Made by a program: the position numbers and the translations under genes. Shown here piece by piece: positions 946-32,335 of a stretch of DNA of 64,000 nt; position 1 is the first letter of the stretch, and each line of letters opens with the position of its first letter. Below the pieces are notes generated by a model that made no database searches, was not told the DNA's origin, and saw only the letters and a program-made list of their open reading frames with translations. Source of the DNA: Candidatus Multivoradales bacterium (GTDB lineage: Bacteria > Acidobacteriota > Thermoanaerobaculia > Multivoradales > Multivoraceae); NCBI GenBank assembly GCA_965223325.1, contig CBDCWI010000001.1, positions 1,376,001 through 1,440,000 on the forward strand, written 5' to 3'.

Positions 946-1013
946 GAGGATCGTCTTGGGAAAGAAGGGGGCGGGCGGATAGAGACCGCGCCGCCGCCCG
1001 GGGGTTTCGGCTA

Positions 1014-1919: not shown

Positions 1920-2136
1920 GATTCTGCTCTCCTCGACTTCTTGGGAGTCTCCCTCGAAGGAGTTTTCCCCCCCTCCACCCAAAAAAGATGGAAATCTCTG
2001 GTTTCAGGCCCAGAAACGGCCAGGTTCTATAGCCCGCGATCGAATGACTTGACGGCTCTGGCGCCCACTCTATGCGCTCTCACACCTGAATCGTCAGGGA
2101 GCGGGTCACAGAGGCCGCGCGGCTGGGTGCAGGCGG

Positions 2137-5819: not shown

Positions 5820-5925
5820 GGGTGGAGCGCCTCAGGAGGGGGATAGCGAGAACAAGGGCGGCGACGCGCCGCCAATCTAGGAATTCTTGCAAATCCGCCC
5901 CACAAACCGAAGCGAAAGCCACCCA

Positions 5926-5960
5926 GGGCCCGGGTAGGGACCCGGGTGGGGACGTGGGAC
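5926..5960 (+). repeat. Intergenic G-rich tandem 12-bp unit (GGGACCCGGGTG-like), copy A
   Basis: gggcccgggta gggacccgggtg gggacgtgggac; the 15-mer GGGACCCGGGTGGGG at 5937-5951 recurs at 14213-14227. Confidence 0.55.
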
Positions 5961-7553
5961 TCAGGCGTCGGCGCGGGAGCCGTCCCACTCGGTCTTGCGA
6001 CCGTTAGCGGTCATGACGGTCTTGATCGATCCGGACTCCGGATTGACTTCGCCTTCGAGTGGCAACGGGCCCCAGGGTGACAGGAGCTGACCCGAGAACT
6101 GGTTCCCGTCCCAGACCAGATCCGAGATGGTCGAGGCCATTAGACCGCGGTCGCCCCAAATGACCCAGAAGGTACCGTCACCTTCTGCTGGAAGATGGAT
6201 CGGCGCCCAGGCTTCCGGGTCGTCTCGCTTCTCCGGTTCGCGACCCGAGACCTTCCACACCTCACCGGGGTGTTCTTTCGCTACTTCCGAGACCAGTCGG
6301 CCACGAATCTGGAAAGGCGTTAGCGGCGCCACGCCTTCGTCGACGATGAAGTCGAGGAAACCGATCATCATTTCGTCGTACGACTCATCGCCGAAGGTCA
6401 CGTCAATCGTTGGATCGGGGTTGTCCGGGTTGCCGGCTGAGTTGTCGTAGTGCGCGATCACTTCGACCCGCGTACCGGCTGTCACTGGGATCGGATCCTC
6501 GAGCTTGTAGTTGGTCTGCCAGTTGAAGTCGTAGTCAAGGACCTTGAGCGGCTCGATCGTACGACCGTCCGGATAGTGCACGCGGTAGACGAACTTCTTT
6601 CCGCGGTAGTGCATGTGGGGTGCAAAGGCCATGATGCGGCCGTCCTGCCAGAACAGGCGTTCGGCACGAACCTCGTGATCGCTGGCGCCAGCCGGAATCT
6701 TGAAGTTGTCGTTCATGATCCAGATGTTGGTGAGTTCTTTGGCCGGCGGTTGATCGGCAAAATGCAGGCCGATCCGCGTGATGTCCTTCTGCTCGGTGTC
6801 GGTGGGGTGGTAGTGCATGTCACCGATGAGGTTGGAACCCTTCTCGAGCAGCCGCCCGGTACCCTCGGCAAACACCATCGGGTCGGTGCCCGCTGCCCAG
6901 GCACCCAACCAACCACCGACGGGATCGACGTCGAAGCCCTTGACGGCAAAGGTAATGACGTGGTGTACGACGGTCGAGTTGCCCGGCAGGATCTCGACGG
7001 CGGTCACCCACTTGTCTTCGTCGAGTCCTAGCTGGCCGACCAGGTTGTGGAACTGGTCCGGTCCTCCGGCGGGAACGGTGACCTCGGGCAGCTCGACGAT
7101 GTGATCAGGCTCGCCGAGCCTCCATTTCCCGGTTGGGAACTCCGGCGCTGCTGGTTCTTTCGAAAGATCTCCAGCCGGCGCGCCTCCCTTGGCCCAACGC
7201 ACGATGGTGTCGATCTCAGACTCTTCGAGACTGCGATCGTTGCTGAAGCCAGCGCTCCCCGGAGCGGCATGCCAGGGCGGCATCTCGCCCGTCTCGACCT
7301 TGCGGGCAATCGACTTCGCCCATGGCCGCACCTCGTTGTAGGAACGCAGCGACATTGGTGCACCCTGTCCCGGACGGTGGCAACTGGTGCACTTGGAGTG
7401 AACGATCGGCGCCACATCGGACGCCCACTGCGGCAGGTCGGCCGCGTTGTTGTTCGGCGCCGGTTCGCTCGCTCCTACCAGCGAGGCAGCAACAGAAAGA
7501 ATGACGGCGAGTGACAGAGCCTCGGCAAGGCGTGGAGCGGGAGTCTTGAACAT
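5961..7553 (-). CDS. Secreted c-type heme + copper type II (PHM/DBH-like) monooxygenase domain protein
   Basis: Signal peptide; CTSCH heme motif; MPPW; CuH ligands VVHHVI and MHYHP; CuM ligands HMH and DEM; YDFNWQ. Confidence 0.82.
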   Translation of the reverse strand: MFKTPAPRLAEALSLAVILSVAASLVGASEPAPNNNAADLPQWASDVAPIVHSKCTSCHRPGQGAPMSLRSYNEVRPWAKSIARKVETGEMPPWHAAPGSAGFSNDRSLEESEIDTIVRWAKGGAPAGDLSKEPAAPEFPTGKWRLGEPDHIVELPEVTVPAGGPDQFHNLVGQLGLDEDKWVTAVEILPGNSTVVHHVITFAVKGFDVDPVGGWLGAWAAGTDPMVFAEGTGRLLEKGSNLIGDMHYHPTDTEQKDITRIGLHFADQPPAKELTNIWIMNDNFKIPAGASDHEVRAERLFWQDGRIMAFAPHMHYRGKKFVYRVHYPDGRTIEPLKVLDYDFNWQTNYKLEDPIPVTAGTRVEVIAHYDNSAGNPDNPDPTIDVTFGDESYDEMMIGFLDFIVDEGVAPLTPFQIRGRLVSEVAKEHPGEVWKVSGREPEKRDDPEAWAPIHLPAEGDGTFWVIWGDRGLMASTISDLVWDGNQFSGQLLSPWGPLPLEGEVNPESGSIKTVMTANGRKTEWDGSRADA

Positions 7554-7671
7554 GGAGAGGCCTCCGAGAGGGGTTTGCGACGTCGGCGGTACGTCTGAGG
7601 GACGGTGTTGGGACGTCTCGGGGATCGAAGAACCTCGGTTCTCCGCGAGGGGTCTCGATCGATTCCTTTTC

Positions 7672-7706
7672 TACGACTGAGACGCCTCGTCAGTTTCACC
7701 GTTACA
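7672..7706 (-). promoter_or_regulatory. Candidate ECF-sigma promoter(s) upstream of the heme/copper protein
   Basis: Minus strand reads TGTAAC-N16-CGTCT, overlapped by TGAAAC-N17-CGTA; both match generic ECF -35 AAC / -10 CGT consensus. Confidence 0.45.
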
Positions 7707-7744
7707 CCGAACAGCGGCACGGATGGCGAGCGGAACGAGGGCGC

Positions 7745-10423: not shown

Positions 10424-10708
10424 GGAGAATCTCCACTCGAGTGATGACAGTGAATCCACCCCCACCGGTCGACGCGACGACGTGACCCGGACTTCACGCG
10501 CTTGACTTTGCGGCGCCAAAAACCGCGCCCCGCCAATCAACGGATCCGCTGATCGAAATGGGAGCGAGGGCTCATCGGACAGACTATCGGGCGTGGAAGG
10601 CCATCGATTCTACCAAGCGATCTGCGCTCGCCTTCGCCCTCGAGTCGCCTCGACTCTGGCTGACCGGGCCCAGCGAGCGCTGCCTCCAACCTCCTCGCGT
10701 CGCGAGGT

Positions 10709-18572: not shown

Positions 18573-20357
18573 ATGAGACCACGCCTTGCCATGCTGTCGG
18601 TCGTTGCCTGCGCCCTGTGCGCAAGCGCACTCACGGCCGAGATCACCGCTATCGAGAACGTACGTCTTTTCGACGGCGAAACCGTTCGAGAAAACGCCAC
18701 GATCGTTTTCGATACCCACGTCATCGCGGTCGGAACGAGCGCCGATATCGAGATTCCCGGCGGCGCAAAACGCGTCGACGGTAAGGGCAAGACGGTGCTC
18801 CCTGGTCTGATCGATGCCCACACCCACGTCTTCGGCGCGGTTCTTGCGGACGCGCTCAACTTCGGCGTCACCAGCTGCCTCGACATGTTCACCCACCCCC
18901 AGATGGCCAAGGGCATGCGAGCACAACAGAAGGACGGTGGACCCGCCAACCGCGCCGACCTGTTCTCGGCAGGCTTTCTGGTCACCGCAACTGGCGGCCA
19001 CGGCACGCAGTTTGGGCTCGAAGTCCCAACCCTCGACGACCCGGAGGAAGCCGAGGAGTTCGTCGCCGCGCGGGTGGCCGAGGGTTCTGACTACATCAAG
19101 CTGATCTACGAGGGCGGCGAGAATATCGGCCGCCCGTTGCCCACCCTTTCCTACGAAGCGCTCGAAAAGGCGATTGCGGCGGCGCACGCTCACGGGAAGC
19201 TCGCCGTGGTCCACGTCAGTACGCTCGAACGCGCCAAAGAAGCCGTGGCGGCAGGTGCCGACGGCCTGGTCCACATCTTCTACGACCAGGAAACCGACGA
19301 CGCCTTCGTGGAGGCCGCGCGCGAGAGAGGGATCTTCATCGTCCCAACCCTGGCGATCACCGAAAGCGTGCTCGGCAATGGAGAGGGCAAGAAACTGGCC
19401 GAAGACGAGGCCATTGCGGCGCATGCGACGCGCGAGCAGATCCTCAACCTCGGCCGCTCTTTCCCGGCCCGCGAGGGTTTTTCGATCGATGCCGTTCTCG
19501 CGTCGGTCGGGCGCCTCGATGAAGCAGGCATTCCAATGCTCGCCGGCACCGACGCCCCCAACCCGGGCACCGCCTTCGGCATTTCGATGCACCGCGACCT
19601 CGAGCTGCTGGTCGAGGCAGGTGTGGCGCCGATCGCGGCACTTAGAGGCGCAACCGCTCAGACCGCCGCCGCCTTCCAGCTCGAAGACCGCGGCACGTTG
19701 GTTCCCGGCAAGTTGGCGCACGTAGTTCTCGTCGATGGCGACCCAACGACGGACATCAAGCGAACCCGCAACATCGCCGGCATCTGGAAGGGCGGCGAAC
19801 GGTTCGAACGCGAAGTAGCCGAGCCCCAGACCGAACACCCCTCCCATGCCGCCGGCCTGGTCACCGACTTCGAAAGCGACGAGGCAGGCGAATCGCCCGA
19901 AGCGGCTAGCTGGGGCGGCACCTGGACCGTCTCGACCGACAAGATGATGGGCGGTGGTTCGACCGGGACAATGCACATCGTTACCGAGAACGGCAACAAC
20001 GTCCTCGAGGTCTCAGGCGAAATGAAGCCGGGCGCCCCGAACATGTGGTCAGGCCCCATGCTGGGAGCGGCGGCACAGATGATGACTCGACGCAGTCTCG
20101 AGGGCGACCGTTTCCGCATCCGCCTCAAAGGCGAAGAAGCCGGACAGGTCTACCTCTATGTGTTCGCCGAGTCGCTCGGCTTCATGCCCTCGATCCACCC
20201 GGTCTCAGTGACCACAGACTGGACGATCGTCGAAGTGCCATTCGATGACTTCTCAGGCTTCGACGCCTCCGGCTTTCAGGCGATTCTGTTCTCGGGGCCA
20301 CCGCAAGAAGGCACGTTTCGCTTCTGGATGGACGACTTCGAAGTGGTTGCGGACTGA
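18573..20357 (+). CDS. Secreted amidohydrolase family protein with C-terminal CIA30-like carbohydrate-binding domain
   Basis: Signal peptide; PGLIDAHTH, IK, VVH, DGLVH, AGTDAPNPG; C-terminal STDKMMGGGS...FWMDDF. Confidence 0.88.
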   Translation: MRPRLAMLSVVACALCASALTAEITAIENVRLFDGETVRENATIVFDTHVIAVGTSADIEIPGGAKRVDGKGKTVLPGLIDAHTHVFGAVLADALNFGVTSCLDMFTHPQMAKGMRAQQKDGGPANRADLFSAGFLVTATGGHGTQFGLEVPTLDDPEEAEEFVAARVAEGSDYIKLIYEGGENIGRPLPTLSYEALEKAIAAAHAHGKLAVVHVSTLERAKEAVAAGADGLVHIFYDQETDDAFVEAARERGIFIVPTLAITESVLGNGEGKKLAEDEAIAAHATREQILNLGRSFPAREGFSIDAVLASVGRLDEAGIPMLAGTDAPNPGTAFGISMHRDLELLVEAGVAPIAALRGATAQTAAAFQLEDRGTLVPGKLAHVVLVDGDPTTDIKRTRNIAGIWKGGERFEREVAEPQTEHPSHAAGLVTDFESDEAGESPEAASWGGTWTVSTDKMMGGGSTGTMHIVTENGNNVLEVSGEMKPGAPNMWSGPMLGAAAQMMTRRSLEGDRFRIRLKGEEAGQVYLYVFAESLGFMPSIHPVSVTTDWTIVEVPFDDFSGFDASGFQAILFSGPPQEGTFRFWMDDFEVVAD

Positions 20358-20428
20358 GACAGGACTACGCTCACCCTCGCGATGAATGAGAACGAAGCCC
20401 ACAGGTCGCCCACGTTGGGGTCACCGCC

Positions 20429-20746
20429 CTACTCGTCCGGAACGACGAATCGTCCTGTCGGTGTTGGCCTGGGGTTCCTGCGCAGATCATCGTCGATCTT
20501 TTTCCAGGATTCTGGATAGTCCTCGCGCGAAGGGCGCGCCCAGAGGGGAGGCCAGTTGTCGATGTCGCCGACCTGCTCGCCGTCGACGAAGACGGTCCAC
20601 ATCGGCTCCGCGGGGAAGTCGTTCAACCTCAACCGGATCTCATGGTCTTCCAAAAGGCAGATCATCGGATAGTCGACGTCCTCGAAGTACTCGAAGACCA
20701 GTTGCCTCTCCTGCAATGCGCTCAAGGTTACCTTCGGCATACTCAA
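20429..20746 (-). CDS. Putative immunity protein for toxin A
   Basis: 105 aa; TTG start overlaps the toxin stop (TTGA); RLNDFPAEPMWT and DIDNWPPLW motifs; paralogue at 23177-23494. Confidence 0.7.
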   Translation of the reverse strand: MSMPKVTLSALQERQLVFEYFEDVDYPMICLLEDHEIRLRLNDFPAEPMWTVFVDGEQVGDIDNWPPLWARPSREDYPESWKKIDDDLRRNPRPTPTGRFVVPDE

Positions 20747-22902
20747 CTCACCTTCTTGGTCACGGCCGCGTTGGTCTTCGAAGACGTTCCTATGATCCTC
20801 TCATAGGCTTCTTGAGGGGAGTGGCCAGCATCTAGGTACTTCCCGACGAGTTCGGCGAACGACGGTCCGTCGGAGTAGCCATGGTGGAAGAGGTCCCGAT
20901 GCTGAAGAAGCAGAACGTCTCTGGCGGATCCCATCATCGCGCGAGCCTCGAGCCGTGCCTGATGGCGTACTGTCCAGGCCCTGAAAGCGCGCTCCTCAAC
21001 GCCTAGCCCACTCGCAAGCCAGTCATGGTTGAGGCGCTCGACAGAGCCCGCCTGGCGGTTGTACCAATCCCGGATGACCGACGGGTCAAGATCTCCGACG
21101 GGTCGAGGGCTCAGGATAGGTTTCCAACGCGCGTCCAGGCGCCACTCTAATCCCTCGTTGGCGGCGCGATAGGCAAGCCGATCAAGTGAGCGTTGGTCTC
21201 CGAGACTCCGGACTTCTCTGGTCAGACTCGAGACTTCGGACCACGAGATCTGACCAAGCATGAGCCCATCGAGCTCAGCCGAAAGCCTCGCGAGCTCATC
21301 GGGTGACGCGGAGGAGGCGATGTCACGAAGCCGTGCTGCGTTGTGCGAGGGTGCAAGGTCGAACACCCTCCCGAGAGCGGTCGCGCGAGCGGCACTGAGG
21401 CCGGCCCGCACACTCTGCTTTGCAACGCTTGCTCCTGCTCCGCCGGCGGCGCTGGCGAAGGCGTCGAAGGTCACTCTGCCTGCGGCTTCTGACATGTAAC
21501 GGGCGGTGGTGCCGGTTCGCTTGGCTTCTTGCCAGCCGTCGCGTAAGGTCTCCCAGGCCATTTGTGCACCGAGTAGAAGCTCGGCCTGTGCGTCGGACTG
21601 GGCCTCGGGATCGACGACGCCAACGCCGAGGTTGGTCGCTTTGACGACTGTGGTTCCCAGGGCGCCCAGGTCTTTCCAGGTCTGGGCGCGGAAGAGGGAC
21701 TTGAAGGCTTCCACCGCCTCGACCCCACCTTCGGCCATTCCCTCGACGTAGCCGTACCCGACCTGCTCGAGCACTGGCTCGAGGTACTCAATCGTGGAGC
21801 CGCCCAGGTTGTGGATCTGCTCCTGAACGAGTTCTCGGTAGCGGGGATCGAGAGAGGTCATGAGCTCCTCGTCGAGGGCCATCTTGCGCAGCGCTTCGAT
21901 GAGGGCCGGCCCTTCGCCCGGGCCGGCGCTGGCGATGGCCTTGCGAATCTCGACCACCTTCGCCATCTCGGTGCCGCTGCTCTCTAAGGCGGCGTGGATG
22001 CGCTCGGCGGCGGTGTAGGCGTTGGCGTGTCCTCTTACGTTGACGGTTTCGCCGTGCGTCCAGGCCGGGACGGCGAGCGTCTGGCCGATCTGGAGAACGC
22101 TTTCTCGGGTGATGTCGGGGTTGACCGCGAGTAGATCGTCGACGGTCACGCCGAGCGACTGGGCAAGCGCCGAGAGGCTATCGCCCTGTTCGATGGTGAG
22201 CTGGAAACCCGGGGCGTCGGGGTTGGGTTCGAGAGCCGGGTCGCGAAACACCGGCGCCCAGGATGACTCGACGCCTGCTTCGCCGAGGCCATGGAACCAG
22301 GCCGCATCATCGAGGTTGAAGTCCCCGCCTGCCTCGAAGTCATTGGTGAAGGAGAAACCGCCGAAGTCGACGCTCGCTTCCGGCCAGGCGTCGTCTTGCT
22401 GCGGCAGACCGCCCCAGAGGCTGAACTCTGCAGGCTCGGTGTCAAAGCCTGGGGCATCCCAGTTCCATTCGAAGTCGTCGAGCCCCAACCCCAGCTCCTG
22501 ATCTTCGGTGGTGCCGATGTCCCAACCGAAGTCCCAGCCGAGGTCGAACTCTCGCGGTTCTTCGTGGAGGTTGGAAGTGCCGAAATCGTAGGGCGACCGG
22601 TCGAGACTCCAGTCGGCACCGAACGGATCGCCATAGGAGAAGTCGGAGCCGGTGTTCCAGAGATTCTCGGCGTTGGCGCCGAAGTCAGTGCCGAAGTCCG
22701 CATCGAACTCGAACCCGAGGTCGAAGGTCGCGGGCGGCTTTGTGTTCGAGTCGAAGAGTGAGCCGAAGCCACCCGAAGCTGACGGTTCGTAGCTGTCGTG
22801 CCCGAGGCTCGGCGAGGTCCCGAAACCGCCGTCAGTGCCTCCGAAGGTGTCACCCAGGTCGAGGCTGAAACCCGAGGGGTTGTCGTTTCTGATGTCGGTC
22901 AT
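20743..22902 (-). CDS. Putative polymorphic toxin A: acidic D/F/G/W-rich N-terminus, LysM, helical/hydrophobic linker, C-terminal putative toxin domain
   Basis: N-terminus shared with 24069-25838; LysM TIEQGDSLSALA...LLAVNPDI...LQIGQTLAVP; unique C-terminus IRDWY...ARLEARAMM...GPSFAEL...IIGTSSKTN; coupled small downstream gene. Confidence 0.75.
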   Translation of the reverse strand: MTDIRNDNPSGFSLDLGDTFGGTDGGFGTSPSLGHDSYEPSASGGFGSLFDSNTKPPATFDLGFEFDADFGTDFGANAENLWNTGSDFSYGDPFGADWSLDRSPYDFGTSNLHEEPREFDLGWDFGWDIGTTEDQELGLGLDDFEWNWDAPGFDTEPAEFSLWGGLPQQDDAWPEASVDFGGFSFTNDFEAGGDFNLDDAAWFHGLGEAGVESSWAPVFRDPALEPNPDAPGFQLTIEQGDSLSALAQSLGVTVDDLLAVNPDITRESVLQIGQTLAVPAWTHGETVNVRGHANAYTAAERIHAALESSGTEMAKVVEIRKAIASAGPGEGPALIEALRKMALDEELMTSLDPRYRELVQEQIHNLGGSTIEYLEPVLEQVGYGYVEGMAEGGVEAVEAFKSLFRAQTWKDLGALGTTVVKATNLGVGVVDPEAQSDAQAELLLGAQMAWETLRDGWQEAKRTGTTARYMSEAAGRVTFDAFASAAGGAGASVAKQSVRAGLSAARATALGRVFDLAPSHNAARLRDIASSASPDELARLSAELDGLMLGQISWSEVSSLTREVRSLGDQRSLDRLAYRAANEGLEWRLDARWKPILSPRPVGDLDPSVIRDWYNRQAGSVERLNHDWLASGLGVEERAFRAWTVRHQARLEARAMMGSARDVLLLQHRDLFHHGYSDGPSFAELVGKYLDAGHSPQEAYERIIGTSSKTNAAVTKKVS

Positions 22903-23003
22903 GGCGCGGGGCTCCGGAAGGCAGGGGTGAGCTGTCAATCGCCTTCTTCCGACATCGAGCGACGTTGTTACCGGCCAACGGAGCGGGCCATTGCGCCCGA
23001 AAC
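22236..23003. repeat. Direct repeat copy 1 (about 770 bp): toxin upstream region plus N-terminal coding region
   Basis: Aligns to 25172-25939 at offset 2936; near-identical over about 22327-22925 and more diverged at both ends. Confidence 0.95.
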
Positions 23004-23176
23004 CAGTGGGAGTCCAATCGGGCTCTCGCCCTTGTGTCGCTCTGGATCATCGCCCGCCTTGTCCAGCACACCGAACATCAAGGCGACCGGCGCGAATAGC
23101 GGAGGAGGACGCCGGAGTGCTCTCTCGGTGGGGTGCAGTTGGAGTTCGCAGGCCCCCGCGCTGGGGAGCTAACGTG

Positions 23177-23494
23177 CTATTCGTCCGGAACGACGAATCG
23201 TCCGCTCGGTGTTGGTCTGGGGTTCTTGCGCAGATCGTGGTCGATCTTTCTCCAGGACTCTGGATAGTCCTCCCGCGAAGGGCGCGCCCAGAGGGGAGGC
23301 CAGTTGTCGATGTCGCCGATCCGCTCGTCGTTGACGAAGACGGTCCACATCGGCTCCGCGGGGAAGTCGTTCAACCTCATCCGGACCTCCTGGTCTTCCA
23401 GTTGGCAGATCATCGGATAGTCGACGTCCTCGAAGTACTCGAAGACCAGCTGCCTCTCCTGCAATGCGTTCAGGGTTACCTTCGGCACCTTCAA
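23177..23494 (-). CDS. Orphan immunity-like protein, paralogue of 20429-20746
   Basis: 90/105 residues identical by manual alignment; same TTGA start overlap. Confidence 0.75.
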   Translation of the reverse strand: MKVPKVTLNALQERQLVFEYFEDVDYPMICQLEDQEVRMRLNDFPAEPMWTVFVNDERIGDIDNWPPLWARPSREDYPESWRKIDHDLRKNPRPTPSGRFVVPDE

Positions 23495-23550
23495 GTCACT
23501 CTCTTGTTCACGGCCCCGTTGGTCCTCGAGACGTTTCGATGATCTTCGCG
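23491..23550 (-). pseudogene. Frameshifted remnant of a toxin-A-type C-terminal tip
   Basis: KIIET[S]/SRTNGAVNKRVT* versus toxin A RIIGTSSKTNAAVTKKVS*; 1-nt deletion (tct tcg to tc tcg). Confidence 0.8.
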
Positions 23551-23619
23551 GTTCTTTTGGGTCCCTGGGCAGTGCCGAAGTCGCAAGGCGAAAGACCGAG
23601 ACGCCAGAGCCCGAACGCG

Positions 23620-24072
23620 TCAGGTCTCGGTCTCAACGAAGGACGCGATCTTGATCTCATCGCGGTCCAGGCCCTCGTGGTCCATGAGAACGGCGCGGAC
23701 CTTGCCGTCTCGCGAAATCCAATCCCACTGGCTTGGGCCCGGATGCGCTCCTGGCGTAACAGCGTCGCAATCGAGGGTGCGGCACAGAGCCTTGGCGAAC
23801 TCCTCGAAGATGGCGGTGTTCTCGGCGTCGTTGGTTCCAAGGCCAAGTCCCTCCTCCACTTCGTCGAAAACATCCGTCGAAAGCTGTAGCGGGTAGTCGC
23901 CGTAGCGCGGATAGCGGATGAGAATGACGGAATGCTCCCTCGGTGGGTGCAGTTCGTCGAGGTCTCGAAAGATCCCAACGCGTTCCGGCGGCACTTCGCA
24001 CACCTCGGCTACGGCGGCGCGCAGCGTCTCGTCGTCATAGCACTTGTCGAGCAGGATCTCATTCCAGATCAT
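23620..24072 (-). CDS. Putative immunity protein for toxin B
   Basis: 150 aa, acidic; ATGA overlap with the toxin B stop; unrelated to the other immunity pair. Confidence 0.68.
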   Translation of the reverse strand: MIWNEILLDKCYDDETLRAAVAEVCEVPPERVGIFRDLDELHPPREHSVILIRYPRYGDYPLQLSTDVFDEVEEGLGLGTNDAENTAIFEEFAKALCRTLDCDAVTPGAHPGPSQWDWISRDGKVRAVLMDHEGLDRDEIKIASFVETET

Positions 24073-25838
24073 TGCAGTCGCTCCCAGACCTGCAGGGCCT
24101 TCTGGCGTTCTGCCTGGCCGACCTTTCTCAGGTCAAGAATCTTGTTCGCCCAGGCGGTGTTGCCGAACTTATTGTAGACGCCCAGGGCACCGTACTCAGC
24201 CCGTGTGAGAGGGTGCAGGCCCAACCCCGAGACAGGAAAGAAGCTCGAGTTGTGGACGCCGTAGATCCGCCCGTTCACCAGGAACTGGTCTCCCACGCGT
24301 ACGGCTCTCCCGGCGCGAATGGCCTGCACGTCTGCCGGCATGTTGACCCACGGTTCAGCCACTGTGTTCGCGTCCTTCTTCACTGACCCCTGGCTCACCT
24401 TCTCCGCTCGATGGCGAACGCCGGGGTTCCCGTAACGTCCCCAACGCTCGACGTCGTAGTTGGGCCGCGAGGCAGAACTGTTCGACGGTGCCACCCGCTC
24501 GGCCTGGAGCGGTGCCGAGCCGCGCGGGGTGAAACGGCCAAGCCATCGCTGCCCCATCGCACCCATTCCCATCATCGCCAGGTAGGAGGTGAGTTGAAGC
24601 GCCTTCTCCCCCTGGTTGACCCTGGTGCCCTTGACGGGTTCCGTCCCCGTAGCTGCGGCGATGCCGGTCTCTGTCAGGAAGTGTGCCGGGTTGAGGCCCT
24701 TGACGAACTCGTACGTCATGTCGATGTTCTTCCGCCAGGCGTCGTTGCCGAAGAGCAGGACATACTTGGCTCGCCTTTCGTTCTTCACGGCTGCATCAGG
24801 GCCGCTAGCGATCTCCCAGGCATCTTGCTGCCCCAGGATGGCGATCGCCTCTTCCTCAGTGAGCCGTATGCTTCCGATCTCGTTGGCCGTGAGGTTGCCG
24901 TCTCCCAGCGCACGGTAGAGTTCTGTCGTGGGCAGTGCCGGCTGCCGGGACGCCGGGACGGTTCGTTGGGCCGAGTCGGTGTTGGCTTCCTGACTGACTC
25001 GGCCCGGGACCGTAACGCGTTGGCCGATCTGGAGCCTGGTCGGGTCGACATCGGCATTGGCTTCTAGAAGATCCTCGGTCCTCATGCCGAGCGAGTTCGC
25101 GAGGGCGTCTATGGTGTCGCCGTCCTGAATGACGACTTCGAAGCCTGAGCCGGCCTCGGATAGGACGAGAACCGGGTCGCGAAACACCGGCGTCCAGGAT
25201 GTCTCTCCCTCTGCTTCGCTGAGGCCGTGGAACCAAGCCGCGTCATCGAGGCTGAAGTCTCGGCCTGCCTCGAAGTCATTGGTGAAGGAGAAACCGCCGA
25301 AGTCGACGCTCGCTTCCGGCCAGGCGTCGTCTTGCTGCGGCAGACCGCCCCAGAGGCTGAACTCTGCAGGCTCGGTGTCAAAGCCTGGGGCATCCCAGTT
25401 CCATTCGAAGTCGTCGAGCCCCAACCCCAGCTCCTGATCTTCGGTGGTGCCGATGTCCCAACCGAAGTCCCAGCCGAGGTCGAACTCTCGCGGTTCTTCG
25501 TGGAGGTTGGAAGTGCCGAAATCGTAGGGCGACCGGTCGAGACTCCAGTCGGCACCGAACGGATCGCCATAGGAGAAGTCGGAGCCGGTGTTCCAGAGAT
25601 TCTCGGCGTTGGCGCCGAAGTCAGTGCCGAAGTCCGCATCGAACTCGAACCCGAGGTCGAAGGTCGCGGGCGGCTTTGTGTTCGAGTCGAAGAGTGAGCC
25701 GAAGCCACCCGAAGCTGACGGTTCGTAGCTGTCGTGCCCGAGGCTCGGCGAGGTCCCGAAACCGCCGTCAGTGCCTCCGAAGGTGTCACCCAGGTTGAGG
25801 CTGAAACCCGAGGGGTTGTCGTTTCTGATGTCGGTCAT
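24069..25838 (-). CDS. Putative polymorphic toxin B: same acidic N-terminus, LysM, pre-toxin-like segment, different basic C-terminal domain
   Basis: First ~192 aa identical to toxin A except one D/N; LysM VIQDGDTIDALA...LLEAN...LQIGQRVTVP; AAATGTEPVKG resembles a pre-toxin TG motif; C-terminus VNGRIYGVH...FPVSG. Confidence 0.75.
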   Translation of the reverse strand: MTDIRNDNPSGFSLNLGDTFGGTDGGFGTSPSLGHDSYEPSASGGFGSLFDSNTKPPATFDLGFEFDADFGTDFGANAENLWNTGSDFSYGDPFGADWSLDRSPYDFGTSNLHEEPREFDLGWDFGWDIGTTEDQELGLGLDDFEWNWDAPGFDTEPAEFSLWGGLPQQDDAWPEASVDFGGFSFTNDFEAGRDFSLDDAAWFHGLSEAEGETSWTPVFRDPVLVLSEAGSGFEVVIQDGDTIDALANSLGMRTEDLLEANADVDPTRLQIGQRVTVPGRVSQEANTDSAQRTVPASRQPALPTTELYRALGDGNLTANEIGSIRLTEEEAIAILGQQDAWEIASGPDAAVKNERRAKYVLLFGNDAWRKNIDMTYEFVKGLNPAHFLTETGIAAATGTEPVKGTRVNQGEKALQLTSYLAMMGMGAMGQRWLGRFTPRGSAPLQAERVAPSNSSASRPNYDVERWGRYGNPGVRHRAEKVSQGSVKKDANTVAEPWVNMPADVQAIRAGRAVRVGDQFLVNGRIYGVHNSSFFPVSGLGLHPLTRAEYGALGVYNKFGNTAWANKILDLRKVGQAERQKALQVWERLQ

Positions 25839-25939
25839 GGCGCGGGGCTCCGGAAGGCAGGGGTGCGCTGTCTATCGCCTTCTTCCGAAATCGAGCGACG
25901 TTGTTACCGGCCAACGGAGTGGGCCATTGCGCCTGAAAC
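25172..25939. repeat. Direct repeat copy 2 (about 770 bp)
   Basis: Aligns to 22236-23003. Confidence 0.95.
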
Positions 25940-26096
25940 GACTGAGATGCCCGTCGAGACCTCGCCTCGTTTCGCCTGGATCAACCCACGGCAACCGGCT
26001 TCGAGCCCCTGGAGACCCGCCCTGAGCGGCCGGACCTCTGGCTGCACAGGTCAAAGCGCACCATTTTCGGGGCAATTCTCACGTTTTTCAGCCTAA

Positions 26097-26130
26097 AAAT
26101 GTGCAGATCATCACATAAAACTCCTATAAT
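26097..26130 (+). promoter_or_regulatory. CRP/FNR-family-like palindrome and perfect -10 (TATAAT) upstream of the ATPase
   Basis: AAATGTGCAGATCATCACATAA (TGTGc-N6-TCACA) at 26097-26118; TATAAT at 26125-26130, 6 nt before the ATG. Confidence 0.55.
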
Positions 26131-26136
26131 GAATGC

Positions 26137-27444
26137 ATGAACAGGAGCCTCTACGCTGAGCTGGTGGCCTGGAAGGCCTCACAGCGCCGGAAGCCTCTCC
26201 TCCTCCGCGGTGCGCGCCAGACGGGCAAGACGTTCCTTCTTCGCGATTTCGCCGCGCGCGAGTACGAGCGGGTCGTCTATCTCGACTTCGAGGAAGACCC
26301 CGCACTCGAGGGTTTCTTCGAGCGCGACCTCGACCCTCACCGCATCGTGTCTGAGTTGTCGGTCTACCAGGGCGTCGACATCGAGCCCGGGAGGCACCTC
26401 CTGGTCTTCGACGAGATCCAGGTCTCCAACCGGGCTCTCACCTCCCTCAAGTACTTCCACGAACAAGCCGCCTCCTTCCACGTCGCTGCGGCCGGTTCTC
26501 TTCTCGGCGTGAAGATGTCTGAGCCTGGCTCGTTCCCGGTCGGCAAGGTGAACCTGCTCGATTTGTATCCCCTCAGCTTCTCGGAGTTCCTGGCCGCGAT
26601 GGGAGAGGGCCGCTACGCCTCGCTGCTCTCAGGGCTCGAGGGGCCGGAGCCGCTTCCCCCACCGATCCATGCGGACCTCATCGCTCTGCTGCGCGCGTAC
26701 TACTTCGTCGGTGGCATGCCCGAAGCGGTGGCGCACTACGCTCAGTCGCGGAACGCGCGAGAGACTCGGAAGATACAGGCCGAAATCGTCGAGTCCTACG
26801 TCTTGGACTTCGCCAAGCACGCCGCGCCCACAGACATTCCGAAACTGAGCCTGATCTGGAGTTCGCTGCCTCGGCACCTGGCCAAGGAGAACAAGAAGTT
26901 CATGTTCTCGGCGGTCCGCAAGGGCGCCCGTGCTAGGGAGTACGAAAACGCTCTTTCATGGCTTCGCGACGCCGGCCTGATTCACTACTGCCATGCGGTT
27001 TCGGCGAGTCGGTCGCCGCTTTCGCACTACGCGGAGCGCAGCATCTTCAAGGTCTACGCGCTCGATGTGGGTCTGCTCGGTGCCATGGCGCGCACGCCCA
27101 TCGAGCTTGGAGTCCAGGGTGAGCGCCTCTTTACCGAGTATCGCGGCGCGCTAGCCGAAAACTATGTAGCGCAGGAGCTGGTGGCGAGAGGTCAACCGGA
27201 GCTCCACTACTGGCGGAGCCGGGGCGGACGAGCAGAGCTCGACTTCCTGTGTCAGCTCGGAGATGCCATCGTTCCGGTCGAGGTCAAGGCAGGTGAAAGT
27301 CGCCGTAGTCGGAGCCTGCACTCCTATGACCAGCAATTCGAACCGGACACGATGGTTCGGGCCAGCCTTCGGAATCTGAAGAAGGACGGGAAGATCTGTA
27401 ACGTTCCGCTGTATGCGGTCTCTGAGCTGGAACGTCTCGTCTGA
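26137..27444 (+). CDS. AAA_14 ATPase with DUF4143 and C-terminal PD-(D/E)XK-like motif
   Basis: GARQTGKT Walker A, FDEIQ Walker B, AAGSLLG, GGMPEAV, KVYALDVGLL, AELDF...PVEVK. Confidence 0.92.
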   Translation: MNRSLYAELVAWKASQRRKPLLLRGARQTGKTFLLRDFAAREYERVVYLDFEEDPALEGFFERDLDPHRIVSELSVYQGVDIEPGRHLLVFDEIQVSNRALTSLKYFHEQAASFHVAAAGSLLGVKMSEPGSFPVGKVNLLDLYPLSFSEFLAAMGEGRYASLLSGLEGPEPLPPPIHADLIALLRAYYFVGGMPEAVAHYAQSRNARETRKIQAEIVESYVLDFAKHAAPTDIPKLSLIWSSLPRHLAKENKKFMFSAVRKGARAREYENALSWLRDAGLIHYCHAVSASRSPLSHYAERSIFKVYALDVGLLGAMARTPIELGVQGERLFTEYRGALAENYVAQELVARGQPELHYWRSRGGRAELDFLCQLGDAIVPVEVKAGESRRSRSLHSYDQQFEPDTMVRASLRNLKKDGKICNVPLYAVSELERLV

Positions 27445-28162: not shown

Positions 28163-28828
28163 GTGAGTCGCTACAAGCCGGAGCAGGTCATCCCAGGCGC
28201 GATTCGACCGGTTGTCGAACCTCTTCCCTACTGGTTCGTCATCGGCGGCCACGCCGTACGCTGCTTCTGCCCTTATCGCCCGACCCGCGATGTCGACTTC
28301 GGGGTGCGCGAGGCGCCTTCGATCGAGGCCCTGCTCGGCGCGCTCGAAGAAAGCGGCACGACCGAGGTTCTCGACAAGAGCGCCGACACGGTGCATCTCA
28401 CCTGGAACGGCATCGGGGTATCGATCTTCCTGCTCGAGGAGATCGGCCGCTACACCGAGGAGCGCCGCCTGGACGTCAAGGGCATCCTCGCCACCAAGGT
28501 GCACGCCATCATCGACCGCGGCACACGTCGCGACTTCTTCGATCTCTACGTGACGCTCCAGGACCAGCAACTGGGGATCGCCGAGGCGTTGGTCGCGCTG
28601 CGTACGGTCTACGCCCAGGAGATCAACGACTCGCTGGTGCTGCGCGCGCTGACCTGGTTCGAGGACGCTGAGCGCGAGGCCCCACTGCCCGGAGAGGGCG
28701 GGAAAGACTGGCAGAAGGTCCAGGACTTCTTTCTGACGCGCGTTGGCTCGCTGATCGTGCCGCCTTCTCATGTCCTCGAGATCCAGCGTCTGCTGGTCGA
28801 TGTCGATGGAGAACCATCCAGCCCCTGA
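28163..28828 (+). CDS. AbiEii/AbiGii-family nucleotidyltransferase (type IV TA toxin-like)
   Basis: IGGHAV...RPTRDVDF, ATKVHAIIDR, RDFFDL, ALTWFEDAE. Confidence 0.85.
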   Translation: MSRYKPEQVIPGAIRPVVEPLPYWFVIGGHAVRCFCPYRPTRDVDFGVREAPSIEALLGALEESGTTEVLDKSADTVHLTWNGIGVSIFLLEEIGRYTEERRLDVKGILATKVHAIIDRGTRRDFFDLYVTLQDQQLGIAEALVALRTVYAQEINDSLVLRALTWFEDAEREAPLPGEGGKDWQKVQDFFLTRVGSLIVPPSHVLEIQRLLVDVDGEPSSP

Positions 28829-28899: not shown

Positions 28900-29835
28900 A
28901 TGTCCCAAGCTGCCTCGATCCCATGGGCGCCTGTCGCCAGCATTTCCGACGTTCCTCCCTCGCCACCTGTCGATCAGGTGGGAGCTGACGAACGTGCCGC
29001 GCGGCTGGGGACGCGCTCGATCAAGAAGGAAAGCAAGCGCGAGGCGCTTCACCTTGTTCTTTCAATGATCGACCTGACGACCCTCGAGGGCGCCGACTCG
29101 GAGGGCAAGGTCAAACGGCTGTGCGCGAAGGCAAAGAACCTGCATAGTGCGCTCCCCGGCCTGCCGCACGTCGGCGCGGTGTGCGTCTATCCCAACTGGG
29201 TGAAAACGGCAGTGGCACAACTCGAAGGCACCGGCATCGGCATCGCTTCGGTGGCCAGCGGCTTTCCCAGCGGTCAGATTCCGCTCGAACTGCGTATCGA
29301 AGAAACCTCCCGCGCAGCCGCAGACGGAGCAACCGAGATCGACATGGTCATCTCGCGCGGTCGTTTCCTGGCTGGCGATCATGACTACGTTTTCGAGGAA
29401 GTTCAGGCGCTCAAGGAAGCCTGCGGCGACGCGCACCTCAAGGTCATCCTCGAGACCGGCGAACTCGAGACCTACGACAACGTGCGGCGCGCGAGCGATG
29501 TGGCAATGTACGCCGGCGCCGACTTCATCAAGACCTCGACCGGCAAGGTCAAACCCGCAGCCACCCTACCGGTCACGCTGGTGATGCTCGAGGCCATTCG
29601 TGACTTCTGGTACGCCACCGGTCACCGGGTCGGGATGAAACCGGCGGGCGGCATCTCGAACTCCAAGCTGGCCATCAAGTATCTGGTCATGCTCCAGGAG
29701 ACTCTCGGGCGCGACTGGATGAACCCCGAGCTCTTCCGCTTCGGCGCATCGTCGCTTGCTAACGACGTGTTGATGCAGATCGCCAAACAAGAGACCGGCC
29801 ACTACCAGTCTCCCGACTACTTCTCTCTGGGTTGA
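28900..29835 (+). CDS. deoC: Deoxyribose-phosphate aldolase
   Basis: IDLTTL, AVCVYP, EIDMVI, LKVILETGEL, FIKTSTGK, KPAGG, FRFGAS. Confidence 0.96.
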   Translation: MSQAASIPWAPVASISDVPPSPPVDQVGADERAARLGTRSIKKESKREALHLVLSMIDLTTLEGADSEGKVKRLCAKAKNLHSALPGLPHVGAVCVYPNWVKTAVAQLEGTGIGIASVASGFPSGQIPLELRIEETSRAAADGATEIDMVISRGRFLAGDHDYVFEEVQALKEACGDAHLKVILETGELETYDNVRRASDVAMYAGADFIKTSTGKVKPAATLPVTLVMLEAIRDFWYATGHRVGMKPAGGISNSKLAIKYLVMLQETLGRDWMNPELFRFGASSLANDVLMQIAKQETGHYQSPDYFSLG

Positions 29836-29843
29836 ACCGCGCT

Positions 29844-31376
29844 ATGTCTGAAACCACTTCGAACGGCTTCGCAAGCCGCCGCCTGAACCTCGGCGGCCTC
29901 GCCTACGCGCCCGCACCCGAGAACACCGAGCCGATCAACCTCCGTGAGCGCTACGGTGTGTTCATCGACGGCGAATTGCGCGAACCCCGTTCTGGGCAAT
30001 GGTTCAAAACCATCGACCCCGCGACCGAGAAACCCCTCGCCGAAGTCGCCGAGGCCGGCGAAAGAGACGTCGACGCGGCGGTCGCCGCAGCGCGTCGTGC
30101 CTTCGACGGCGAATGGTCGGCCATGCCGGCGCGAGAGCGCGGCAAGGTACTTTTTCGCGTCGCGCGGCTCATTCAGGAGCGGGCGCGCGAGCTGGCCGTG
30201 GTCGAGTCGATGGATGGTGGCAAGCCAATTCGCGAGTCCCGAGACGTCGACATTCCGCTGGTGGCTGCCCACTTCTTCTACTACGCCGGCTGGGCCGACA
30301 AGCTGGCCTGGGCCGCACCGGGGGCATCAACGAAGCCGCTGGGCGTCGCCGGGCAGGTCATTCCGTGGAACTTTCCACTCCTGATGGCGGCCTGGAAGTT
30401 GGCGCCCGCGCTGGCGGCCGGCAACACGGTGGTTCTCAAACCAGCCGAGACCACTCCCCTCACCGCCATGCTGCTCGCCGAGATCCTCACCGACGCAGGC
30501 CTCCCGGCCGGCGCAGTCAACATCGTTCCAGGGGCCGGCGCCACCGGCGCCGCTTTGGTGGGTCACCCGGGAGTCGACAAGGTGGCCTTCACCGGCTCGA
30601 CCGAAGTCGGCAAAGAGGTCCTACGCACGCTCGCACCGACCGAGAAGCGCTACACCCTCGAGCTCGGCGGCAAGGCCGCCAACCTCGTGTTCGAAGACGC
30701 CGCCATCGACCAGGCCGTCGAAGGCATCGTCAACGGCATCTTCTTCAACCAGGGGCACGTGTGTTGTGCCGGATCGCGGCTTCTGGTGCAAGAAGGCATT
30801 GCCGATGTGATCGTGCAGAAGCTCCAGGACCGCATGGACACCCTGATCGTCGGCGACCCGCTGGACAAGAACACCGATATCGGTGCGATCAACTCAAAAG
30901 AGCAGCTCGAGCGCATCGAGGGCTATCTCGAGATCGGCCGGGACGAGGGCGCGGGCATCTACCAAACGTCGTGTGCCGTCCCCGAATCCGGCTACTGGTG
31001 CCGGCCGACGCTCTTCCTCAACGCCAGCCCAGCACATCGCGTCGTCCAGGAGGAGATCTTCGGCCCGGTTCTCAGCGTCCAGACCTTCCGTACCGTCGAC
31101 GAAGGGATCAAACTTGCCAACAACACGCCGTACGGTTTGTCCGGTGGCGTGTGGACCGACAAGGGCGCCCGCGCCTTCCGCGTTTCGAACAAGATCCGAG
31201 CCGGCGTCCTGTGGGCGAACACCTACAACAAGTTCGACCCCACCTCGCCGTTCGGCGGCTACAAGGAAAGCGGCAGCGGTCGTGAGGGCGGGTTGCACGG
31301 TCTCGCCGAGTACCTCGACATGACTCCCCTGGGAACGCCCGAAAGTTCATCGGTATCCCAAGGAGGTGCAGCATGA
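29844..31376 (+). CDS. NAD-dependent aldehyde dehydrogenase (probable acetaldehyde oxidation with deoC)
   Basis: PWNFP, KPAE, FTGSTEVG, LELGGK, NQGHVCCAG, EEIFGPV, PFGGYKESG. Confidence 0.95.
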   Translation: MSETTSNGFASRRLNLGGLAYAPAPENTEPINLRERYGVFIDGELREPRSGQWFKTIDPATEKPLAEVAEAGERDVDAAVAAARRAFDGEWSAMPARERGKVLFRVARLIQERARELAVVESMDGGKPIRESRDVDIPLVAAHFFYYAGWADKLAWAAPGASTKPLGVAGQVIPWNFPLLMAAWKLAPALAAGNTVVLKPAETTPLTAMLLAEILTDAGLPAGAVNIVPGAGATGAALVGHPGVDKVAFTGSTEVGKEVLRTLAPTEKRYTLELGGKAANLVFEDAAIDQAVEGIVNGIFFNQGHVCCAGSRLLVQEGIADVIVQKLQDRMDTLIVGDPLDKNTDIGAINSKEQLERIEGYLEIGRDEGAGIYQTSCAVPESGYWCRPTLFLNASPAHRVVQEEIFGPVLSVQTFRTVDEGIKLANNTPYGLSGGVWTDKGARAFRVSNKIRAGVLWANTYNKFDPTSPFGGYKESGSGREGGLHGLAEYLDMTPLGTPESSSVSQGGAA

Positions 31377-32335
31377 GCATCGCCCCCGAAAAGGAAGCCA
31401 GAGACCGCCCAGCAGTCGACCTGGACGGCCTGGATCAGACACAGGGCGCCTCGAAACGCCAGCGGCTCGCGGTTTCAAAAACCTACAAGCTCTACATCGG
31501 GGGCGCCTTCCCGCGTACCGAGTCGGGGCGCTACGACCGCGCCGCGAACCCCAAAGGCGAGCTGTTGGCAAACGTCTGCCGAGCGTCGCGCAAAGACTTT
31601 AGGGAAGCAGTCGTTGCAGCGCGCGCCGCCCAACCAGGCTGGGCCCAGCGCTCGGCCTACAATCGCGCGCAGATCCTCTACCGCATCGCCGAGATGCTCG
31701 AAGGCCGCGGCGAGCAGTTCGAAGCCGAGCTGCGTGCTCACGGTGCGTCGGCGAAAGACGCGCGGCGCGAGGTCGAAGCCACCGTCGACCGGCTGGTCTA
31801 TTACGCCGGCTGGGCAGACAAGTACCAGCAGGTCTTCGGGTCGGTGAACCCGGTCGCCTCGTCGCACTTCAACTTCTCGCTCCTCGAACCGATGGGCGTG
31901 ATCGCGCAGATCGCCCCCGAGGCAAGTGCCCTGCTCGGCCTGGTGTCGCAGATCGCACCCGCGATCGTAGGCGGCAACACCGTTGTTGCGCTCGCGTCAC
32001 GCTCGAAACCGCTTCCCGCCATCTCCTTCGGTGAGGTGCTGCACTCCTCCGACGTACCGGGAGGGGTCGTGAACCTGCTCACCGGGCGGGCCGACGAGCT
32101 GCTCGAGCACTTCGCCTCCCATATGGACGTCAATGCGCTGGTCCTCGCGCGTCGCGGTGACTCAGAAGCCGTAGATCTGGCCACCGCCAGAACGCTCGCC
32201 GCCTCAAACCTCAAGCGGGTCCGGGCAACCTCCGCGGAGTCTCTTGCCGACTTCCTCGAAGACACAGCCCAGGGCCCCTGGTCGATTCGCGACCTGCAAG
32301 AAGTCAAGACCACCTGGCACCCAATCGGGTCTTAG
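31373..32335 (+). CDS. Short aldehyde-dehydrogenase-like protein lacking the catalytic domain
   Basis: NAD-binding-domain motifs (YYAGWADK, EPMGV, PGGVVNLLTG) and EVKTTWHP end; no ELGGK or catalytic Cys segment; ATGA-coupled. Confidence 0.85.
   Translation: MSIAPEKEARDRPAVDLDGLDQTQGASKRQRLAVSKTYKLYIGGAFPRTESGRYDRAANPKGELLANVCRASRKDFREAVVAARAAQPGWAQRSAYNRAQILYRIAEMLEGRGEQFEAELRAHGASAKDARREVEATVDRLVYYAGWADKYQQVFGSVNPVASSHFNFSLLEPMGVIAQIAPEASALLGLVSQIAPAIVGGNTVVALASRSKPLPAISFGEVLHSSDVPGGVVNLLTGRADELLEHFASHMDVNALVLARRGDSEAVDLATARTLAASNLKRVRATSAESLADFLEDTAQGPWSIRDLQEVKTTWHPIGS

Follow-up and report, generated by a model that had tools for sequence, protein, structure and literature searches.

Sequence evidence for a recent gene-conversion tract in a polymorphic-toxin family with an unusual acidic head in a Multivoradales bacterium

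How do two neighbouring genes come to share an almost identical stretch of DNA when the sequence that follows it is diverged in one part and unrelated in the next? This question is raised by a 64,000-nt stretch of DNA from Candidatus Multivoradales bacterium (assembly GCA_965223325.1), here called the window, which corresponds to positions 1376001-1440000 of the first of the two contigs (C1 and C2) of a 6.69-Mb, 98.2% complete genome (G000:C1:1376001-1440000). Two open reading frames (ORFs) on the minus strand of the window, tox1 and tox2, lie 2.9 kb apart and encode proteins that begin with an acidic, aromatic-rich head. The initial annotation of the window had flagged span 22327-22902, which equals codons 1-192 of tox1 and has its twin at 25263-25838 in tox2, as a low-complexity aromatic-acidic repeat kept nearly identical at the DNA level, and had attributed this either to recent gene conversion, to a recombination hotspot for tip swapping, or to strong selection on a secretion or loading signal. 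The analysis described here points to a conversion tract within a lineage-restricted polymorphic-toxin family, in which a disordered acidic head would serve as trafficking module; taken as a whole, this explanation is given a probability of about 75%.

The near-identity of about 575 nt described initially is borne out, and it extends slightly further than first drawn. The two genes match by blastn at 95.9% identity over 820 nt (23049-22230 against 25983-25166), and global alignment of this 820-column block finds 34 differences, only one of which lies inside the 603-nt tract 22327-22929, whose onset is 27 nt 5' of the ATG. That sole difference, a G/A at position 22860, gives Asp15Asn and leaves a longest perfect run of 533 nt (22327-22859). 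Breakpoint mapping by alignment places the tract bounds at 22327 and 22929 and the end of the homology block at 22230, and within the same block the flanks differ at 33 of 217 columns (about 15%; 84-86% identity on both sides), the 5' flank contributing 19 of these differences over 120 nt and the 3' flank the other 14 over 97 nt. At the flank rate, the probability of finding no more than one difference in 603 nt is 7e-42, and at the rate seen between the co-duplicated candidate immunity genes (26/318 nt, 8%) it is 2.5e-21. Beyond 22230 the LysM-coding part is as clearly diverged as the initial annotation had said, with 57% DNA identity between tox1 and tox2, about 1.0 synonymous substitutions per synonymous site (dS) and 0.44 non-synonymous substitutions per non-synonymous site (dN); beyond LysM the two genes are unrelated.

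Silent sites decide between copying and selection as the cause of this identity. Codons 1-192 of tox1 and tox2 show no synonymous and one non-synonymous difference, whereas dS is 0.43 across codons 193-232 immediately downstream. Because silent sites are identical as well, and selection at the protein level cannot remove silent differences, the identity of the heads reflects recent copying of DNA, and selection on a secretion or loading signal falls away as its cause. Moreover, the tract is nested in diverged homology on both sides, which argues for conversion between tandem paralogues and not for a fresh insertion. Comparison of the two sequences thereby gives firm support to the 603-nt tract as a recent gene-conversion tract between two tandem members of the toxin family.

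The identity might also have arisen without conversion, either because the head was freshly duplicated and came to lie before a foreign gene or because an artefact of assembly or polishing copied one head onto the other. Four public short-read runs (X1-X4), all from one study that may include the source sample, contain the stretch and bear on this account. In X1, eight contigs match the window without any difference, and the tract forms one contig of its own, 603 nt long and bounded exactly by 22327 and 22929, which shares an overlap of about 30 nt with each of four distinct flank contigs; none of the four runs has a second, diverged tract contig. Depth, which is one figure per contig and hence weak as a measure of copy number, is in the tract roughly double that of most flanks: it is 17.1 for the X1 tract against 10.7, 9.35 and 8.7 for three flanks and 18.3 for the fourth, and the corresponding values are 409 against 151-184 in X2, 12.6 against 8.1-8.8 in X3 and 30.1 against 11.6-17.8 in X4. 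The initial annotation had named assembly collapse as something that could produce the identity; what the short-read contigs contain is one tract sequence joined to four distinct flanks, and these read-graph data argue against collapse or a copying error. It does speak for an artefact or duplication that an exact repeat of 603 nt exceeds the short reads, with no bridging contig in any run, and that none of the four shows the G/A at 22860 as a variant. Against it stand the homologous, diverged sequence in which the tract is embedded on both sides, unexpected from a fresh insertion, the junction of all four flanks with a single tract sequence, and the independently assembled proteins P0002 and P0006, which are identical to the window heads over long stretches. 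Artefact or fresh duplication is accordingly given only a very small chance.

Gene conversion, the explanation preferred here, also appears to recur with different end points. In P0006, a tox2 orthologue from a related ENA metagenome assembly, residues 193-222 are of the tox1 type where the tox2 of the window has diverged, so that its tract would end further 3', and in contigs of runs X3 and X4 tox2-type sequence is joined to tox1-type sequence at 22230. The population sampled in these same two runs carries a second allele upstream of tox2 (25912-26053), with 6 differences in 142 nt.

The two genes belong to a larger set. A genome-wide count, one of the checks proposed for the locus at the outset, finds the head six times in the genome, as five full paralogues and one 45-codon fragment; tox5 was detected through its middle domain, and its head retains the landmark motifs. 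The proteins are 589-764 amino acids (aa) long, and a constant N-terminal part common to the five paralogues is followed by unrelated tails, the pattern of polymorphic toxins. Every member begins with a conserved 5' leader and a constant head (about 170-240 aa), in most cases followed by a peptidoglycan-binding LysM domain and in some by a helical middle domain, and ends in a variable tail; the small acidic ORF after the tail is the candidate immunity gene. LysM is recognised with scores of 43.9 bits in tox3 and 31.6 bits in tox5, set against a curated PF01476 cut-off of 20.9 bits that the two window proteins also exceed (Table 1), and tox4 is without a match. The C-terminus of tox3 is an EndoU domain (PF14436, E 5.6e-16), and precomputed Pfam annotation gives P0002 and P0005 a recognised tail domain too, whereas the tails of tox1, tox2, tox4 and tox5 have none.

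Tip swapping on a constant head, the second of the possibilities raised initially, finds support in a mosaic protein, an orphan cassette and three different break points among the paralogues. tox2 and tox4 diverge from the rest after the head (residues ~205-232), and tox1 parts from tox3 and P0002 at residues ~425-500; the LysM and helical middle domain that tox1 and tox3 share have dS of 0.5-0.7 and dN/dS of 0.16-0.29. P0002, from a related strain, matches tox1 at 95-100% identity along most of the head and at 90-98% through LysM and the middle domain, and at residue ~425-465 it switches to 82-88% identity with the EndoU tail of tox3; as judged from these alignments, it is a tail swap caught between strains. 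Downstream of imm2 lies an orphan cassette with 90% nucleotide identity to 20429-20800, in which the last ~55 nt of a tox1-type tail, frameshifted by a 1-nt deletion, precede an intact imm1' identical to imm1 at 91 of 106 aligned positions, the shared stop included. Such a tail remnant with its immunity gene bears, in its sequence, the clear trace of recombination, and orphan tail/immunity cassettes are known from contact-dependent inhibition (CDI) and Rhs loci (PMC3482391). The proposed mechanism is that homologous recombination in the constant head and middle parts would move tails between loci and leave orphan tail/immunity remnants behind, while the same homology would let two tandem heads overwrite each other. 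Family architecture and tail swapping are both well supported by these comparisons.

The constant part also reaches beyond the coding region. In each of the five head-bearing copies that were aligned, a leader of about 75 nt before the ATG is conserved as well, so that the constant cassette comprises leader and head together. Within the leader lie a GTAACAA box and a sequence that could form a hairpin (CCGGAAG...CTTCCGG), the 3' arm of which directly adjoins the ribosome-binding site, GGAG; the hairpin is conserved, yet covariation is found in only 1 of 17 predicted pairs. An Rfam scan of window positions 20000-26500 returned one chance-level match and nothing else, and a promoter scan for sigma-70-like sites found none.

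Activity of the tox1 and tox2 tails as toxins, and of imm1 and imm2 as immunity genes, is putative and follows from gene arrangement. In a Pfam scan of the tox1 and tox2 proteins (E up to 0.1) only LysM is recognised, and imm1 and imm2 match no known immunity family. Outside the shared middle part, the tox1 tail is without relatives among families, PDB structures or database proteins, the tox2 tail has a single relative, P0006, and against solved structures the matches of both proteins are limited to the LysM part. No further ORF, and so no candidate lysis gene, lies between imm1 and the adjoining amidohydrolase gene.

Table 1. Positions of the features discussed in the text; coordinates are those of the window unless a contig (C1 or C2) is given.
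Feature	Position	Strand	Description
tox1	20743-22902	-	ORF, 719 aa; ATG at 22902; head, LysM, helical middle domain and orphan tail
tox2	24069-25838	-	ORF, 589 aa; head, diverged LysM and unrelated orphan tail
Near-identical tract, tox1 copy	22327-22929	-	Final 27 nt of 5' leader and codons 1-192
Near-identical tract, tox2 copy	25263-25865	-	From blastn and global alignment
tox1 head (N-domain), residues 1-232	22207-22902	-	Acidic, rich in Gly and aromatic residues; two FDLG-phi-[DE] motifs
tox2 head, residues 1-232	25143-25838	-	Differs from tox1 head at residue 15 and at 15 positions within residues 193-231
tox1 LysM, residues 236-279	22066-22197	-	PF01476, E 1.2e-9, 38.3 bits; matches solved LysM chains in PDB
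tox2 LysM, residues 236-278	25005-25133	-	PF01476, E 3.7e-8, 33.6 bits; pLDDT 70-78 in single-sequence fold
tox1 middle domain, residues 286-500	21403-22047	-	80% identity to tox3, 45% to tox5; also in P0002 and P0005
tox1 variable tail, residues ~501-719	20746-21402	-	Putative toxin; P0002 has an EndoU tail at the equivalent position
imm1, candidate immunity gene	20429-20746	-	Small acidic ORF, 105 aa, overlapping tox1 stop; possible ATG at 20740
imm2, candidate immunity gene	23620-24072	-	Acidic ORF, 150 aa; ATG overlaps tox2 stop (ATGA)
Orphan cassette	23177-23549	-	Remnant of tox1-type tail, then intact imm1' (23177-23494); downstream of imm2
Family 5' leader	22903-22980; twin 25839-25916	-	Kept upstream of all five head-bearing copies aligned
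tox3	C2:3698739	+	764 aa; EndoU tail
tox4	C2:4451799	-	610 aa; no LysM match
tox5	C1: about 1702497-1704542		681 aa, counted from its likely start; head divergent (39% identity when aligned)
Head fragment	C2:4464672		45 codons; beside IS200-like transposase genes
PCAT-type type I secretion operon	C1, about 1,764,800-1,773,760 (L016:4817-13759)		Outer-membrane factor, HlyD, C39-peptidase ABC transporter, FHA-fused ABC protein
Type III export-apparatus cluster	C2, about 1,105,500-1,122,100 (L024-L027)		SctN-type ATPase, YscO-like, FliK-like, FliMN_C, FliO/P/Q/R, FlhB, FlhA, YscJ/FliF-like, FHA proteins

The head has very few relatives. A word-indexed search of 5.8 billion clusters returned six proteins, namely the genome's own copies and P0002, P0005 and P0006 from ENA metagenomes, and an exhaustive phmmer search of 1.84 billion representatives returned four. 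A head profile matches 1 of 57 genomes of the bacterial family, a genome of the same genus (G002) being without it, and 1 of 201 genomes in an order sample; the middle domain occurs in 2 of these 201, the genome under study and one weak match (E 6.8e-4). Pattern scans of about 185,000 species genomes (227 matches) and of JGI metagenome contigs (313 matches) confirmed no relative of the head. The searches thus describe a lineage-restricted module, with the three ENA metagenome proteins as its only relatives outside the species. Synteny with G002, in which the flanking genes are 53-70% identical and lie megabases apart, defines no empty site, and the five loci have no accessory gene in common, only insertion sequence (IS) or repeat fragments being shared. 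One IS fragment, 95-100% identical, lies beside both tox3 and tox4, and at least four IS200-like Y1 transposase genes (323-347 aa), together with many repeated fragments, surround the 45-codon head fragment in G000:C2:4458000-4477999 (L008).

What kind of sequence has been copied? Over residues 1-232 the head is 14.7% Gly, 14.2% Asp, 10.8% Phe and 4.3% Trp, and it has 49 Asp and Glu to 5 Lys and Arg, a net charge of -44 over 232 aa, which agrees with the initial remark on its few basic residues. The (F/W)-D-x-G units that had been seen to recur are enriched, with four [FW]DxG where 0.7 are expected from shuffled sequences (a count of 4 is reached in 7 of 2000), and FG occurs nine times against 3.7 (9 of 2000 reach 9). 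The description as a low-complexity repeat, by contrast, stands only in part: low complexity holds only mildly, the entropy of 40-aa windows being 3.3-3.8 bits in the head against 3.1-3.8 bits in the remaining protein, and repetition holds at the level of motifs but not of internal self-alignment, the best score of 55 comparing with 43.8 +/- 7.2 in shuffles, 17 of 200 of which reach it. An internal tandem duplication of the head was considered and rejected as not significant on that score. In a six-frame translation of the genome, with 41 matches to [FL]DLG-phi-[DE], only the five family members have at least two such motifs per frame; G-x-D-W-[SW]-L-D and conserved Trp residues are further landmarks. 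Six aligned heads (60-93% identity) have 87 invariant columns, eight of them Trp, with indels falling between conserved blocks, and the stretch D-T-F-G-G-[TS]-D is invariant in all six. Residues 1-40 are the best conserved of the first 160: tox1 and tox3 are 80% identical there, a value that falls to 58-67% in the three 40-column windows after it. Between older paralogues the dN/dS of the head is 0.21-0.33, which marks purifying selection, and the head sequence is therefore constrained and not a mere spacer.

The initial annotation had further proposed that the head is intrinsically disordered, possibly Ca2+-binding or self-associating. AlphaFold2 on the head, with an alignment of six rows, gives a mean predicted local distance difference test score (pLDDT) of 38.9; the value stays under 50 at 229 of 232 residues, and secondary structure is absent. 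The five models range from 25 to 39 in mean pLDDT and have no strands. Mean hydropathy, at 0.432 against a charge-hydropathy boundary of 0.481, falls on the disordered side. In a fold of tox2 residues 225-589 from single sequence, LysM alone is confident and the presumably folded tail also scores below 50, so that disorder is consistent with these predictions without being established by them. No confident fold and no Pfam or NCBIfam match, whether to a known globular or a known trafficking domain, is found in residues 1-232, and an ESM Atlas features search with the head gave no usable match. A head that folds instead, alone or with Ca2+, into a repetitive beta-rich domain for surface anchoring or self-association would accommodate its 16% aromatic residues, its 87 invariant columns across paralogues that are 60-70% identical, and the position of the indels between conserved blocks, and a six-row AlphaFold2 run that fails on the tox2 tail as well is weak evidence against a fold. 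Such a domain is nonetheless unlikely, given five models without strands at those scores, a net charge of -44 with 5 basic residues that disfavours compaction without counter-ions, the lack of a significant internal repeat and the ESM Atlas result. The head is, on these models, probably an intrinsically disordered, strongly acidic chain with embedded aromatic binding motifs.

As a general rule the N-terminal and central parts of polymorphic toxins serve trafficking (PMC3482391), and the head would by its position be the trafficking module of this family, recognised by a delivery or uptake machine. Known systems resemble it to differing degrees. CdiA-CT/CdiI and Rhs systems (Zhang et al. 2012, PMC3482391) likewise join variable tails to an N-terminal part that stays constant, have a small gene downstream of each tail, and exchange tails by recombination in the constant part, with a displaced tail remnant and intact immunity gene left downstream; an EndoU tail is common to them and, here, to the paralogue tox3. 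The tox family differs in having no RHS or filamentous repeats, no signal peptide and only 589-764 aa, and its head corresponds to no trafficking domain in the table of that paper (TPS, PAAR/VgrG, PVC peptidase, WXG/LXG, PrsW, MuF). Nuclease bacteriocins, the E-type colicins and S-type pyocins (PMC5536347), are also leaderless, with a Gly-rich N-terminus, disordered there and predicted to be so here, that carries short binding motifs, a central domain, a C-terminal toxin and an immunity gene directly downstream, and their killing domains are swapped by recombination; the tox family differs from them in its lack of a colicin or pyocin Pfam domain and of a lysis gene, in its extremely acidic head of about 230 aa, in its LysM domain, and in being chromosomal and multi-copy. 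Vibrio type VI effectors with LysM and MIX (PMC5536347) share a LysM upstream of a polymorphic antibacterial tail, but the genome that encodes the tox family is without a match to the sheath of a type VI secretion system (T6SS) or to PAAR.

Which machine would read the head is a matter on which the genome gives partial guidance. Genome-wide searches returned no match to the T6SS sheath protein VipB, to Phage_sheath_1, to PAAR, to VirB4 or to flagellin, and so no marker of a T6SS, an extracellular contractile injection system (eCIS) or a type IV secretion system (T4SS); no secretion genes lie within about 10 kb of the five toxin loci, and the proteins lack a signal peptide, since among their first 60 residues hydrophobic runs do not exceed 2 aa. 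Present in the genome are a TolB/TolA-like pair, a type I secretion operon of the peptidase-containing ABC transporter (PCAT) type and a type III export-apparatus cluster (Table 1). The FHIPEP gate of the latter is found in 1 of 57 genomes of the bacterial family, the same genome that bears the head, and in 9 of 201 genomes of the order sample, the unpublished G181 included, the other eight of which are without the head; since the co-occurrence amounts to one genome, with a chance of 9/201, it is a lead only.

Three routes can be set against one another, the probability they leave over going to other routes or to several at once. The least improbable of them, still tentative, is that the proteins are diffusible bacteriocins, released like colicins or pyocins without a dedicated secretion system, and that the disordered head is a putative translocation domain; by analogy it would thread through an outer-membrane protein of the target and capture periplasmic Tol or Ton components via its aromatic-acidic motifs, while LysM would grip peptidoglycan. 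This entry into target cells would fit the missing signal peptide, the lack of VipB, phage sheath, PAAR and VirB4 in a 98%-complete genome, the translationally coupled downstream ORFs, the EndoU (RNase-type) tail of one paralogue, which must reach the target cytoplasm, and the TolB/TolA-like pair, which related cells would share; nuclease bacteriocins commonly begin with a disordered translocation region that binds porin and TolB (PMC5536347). It fits poorly with the lack of any colicin or pyocin domain (Pfam at E up to 0.1), lysis gene or promoter-like site, and with a head of about 230 aa that is far longer and more acidic than the ~90-residue regions described in PMC5536347; capture of Tol or Ton components is hypothetical, drawn by analogy.

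Export through the type III-like apparatus is a less likely route. The head would here be an uncleaved N-terminal signal and a region that binds a chaperone or the sorting platform of a flagellin-less apparatus, which would, by analogy, resemble the 'needleless' type III secretion system (T3SS*) that Myxococcus uses in prey lysis (PMC12075869). Like that system, the cluster on C2 combines export apparatus and sorting platform without flagellin in a soil bacterium; PMC12075869 describes T3SS* as having neither secretin nor needle nor translocon and its effectors as yet to be identified, hence there is nothing with which to compare the head. In favour are the cluster itself, the distribution of FHIPEP set beside that of the head (1 of 57 family genomes, the same genome; 9 against 1 of 201 in the order sample) and the higher conservation of the first 40 residues. 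The single co-occurring genome, the eight FHIPEP-positive genomes without the head and the distance of the cluster from every toxin locus count against it. We know of no type III substrates with immunity genes, though no search for them was made, and this too is counted against the route. The fuller proposal, that the acidic aromatic head feeds interbacterial toxins into a flagellin-less, possibly needleless type III-like apparatus while LysM retains them in peptidoglycan until contact-dependent delivery, is more doubtful still.

Export by the PCAT operon is the most improbable of the three. The first 22 residues, which end in Gly-Gly, would be a double-glycine leader cut off by the genome's sole C39-ABC transporter, and the acidic Gly/Asp-rich region, by analogy with RTX proteins, would be unfolded in the cell and fold with Ca2+ outside. 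An operon with outer-membrane factor, HlyD, C39-ABC transporter and a second ABC protein, the invariant D-T-F-G-G-[TS]-D of the six aligned heads and the Gly and Asp content agree with this. However, Gly-Gly is expected by chance in a chain with 15% Gly, and the spacing of the hydrophobic residues F12, L14, L16 and F20 is strand-like, whereas known double-glycine leaders form an amphipathic helix. Moreover, this N-terminus is not conserved in tox5, the cargos known for PCAT transporters are small peptides, and the operon is 370 kb from the window locus.

Several observations weigh against conversion of a trafficking head in a toxin family as the whole explanation. Short-read contigs cannot phase the flanks across the tract, no contig in the four runs bridges the repeat, and with one X1 flank at a depth of 18.3 a twofold depth of the tract is not clean. 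The tox1 and tox2 tails match no family, solved structure or protein outside the tox family, which leaves toxin and immunity roles conjectural. Low pLDDT is weak evidence for disorder when the tox2 tail also scores below 50 from single sequence, 16% aromatic residues are unusual for a disordered chain, and the absence of secretion genes near the five loci links no machine to the head.

The surroundings of the toxin loci are defence-island-like, and GmrSD and Schlafen/AlbA_2 genes occur there too. A DUF4143/AAA_14 ATPase gene (26137-27444) adjoins the toxin pair, near which an ORF of 167 aa also precedes a gene for an AbiEii-type nucleotidyltransferase toxin (28163-28828), and an AbiEii gene is also found near tox3 (L006:3261-3938). 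At the start of the window, four genes stand in a row on the minus strand of 1-10540: a subtilase gene truncated by the window boundary, a gene for a CHAT-domain protein of 984 aa, an ORF of 530 aa that belongs to no family, and a gene for a protein of 931 aa with C-type lectin domains at its C-terminus. They may be another conflict or signalling module. Positions 29832-32335 contain two adjacent ORFs of the aldehyde-dehydrogenase family (514 aa and 320 aa), the second of which covers only the first half of the Pfam profile.

Conversion and concerted evolution of the head are in themselves ordinary and count among the textbook traits of polymorphic toxins. The unusual element is the head itself: about 230 aa long, this module fits no listed trafficking domain, has nearly no relatives, and occurs in a genome without matches to VipB, phage sheath, PAAR or VirB4, which mark the machines that usually deliver leaderless antibacterial toxins. 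In kind, the system belongs with the polymorphic toxin systems, among which its head is of a new type, and it occurs in a phylum, the Acidobacteria, whose interbacterial weaponry has to our knowledge barely been studied. Identifying the reader of the head could bring a further, new route of delivery into the catalogue of polymorphic toxins; alternatively, colicin-like uptake, in which a disordered domain captures a periplasmic partner, would extend to Acidobacteria. Were the type III-like cluster the route after all, the toxins would be the first identified substrate class of 'T3SS*' machines and would provide a handle on the substrates of needleless systems.

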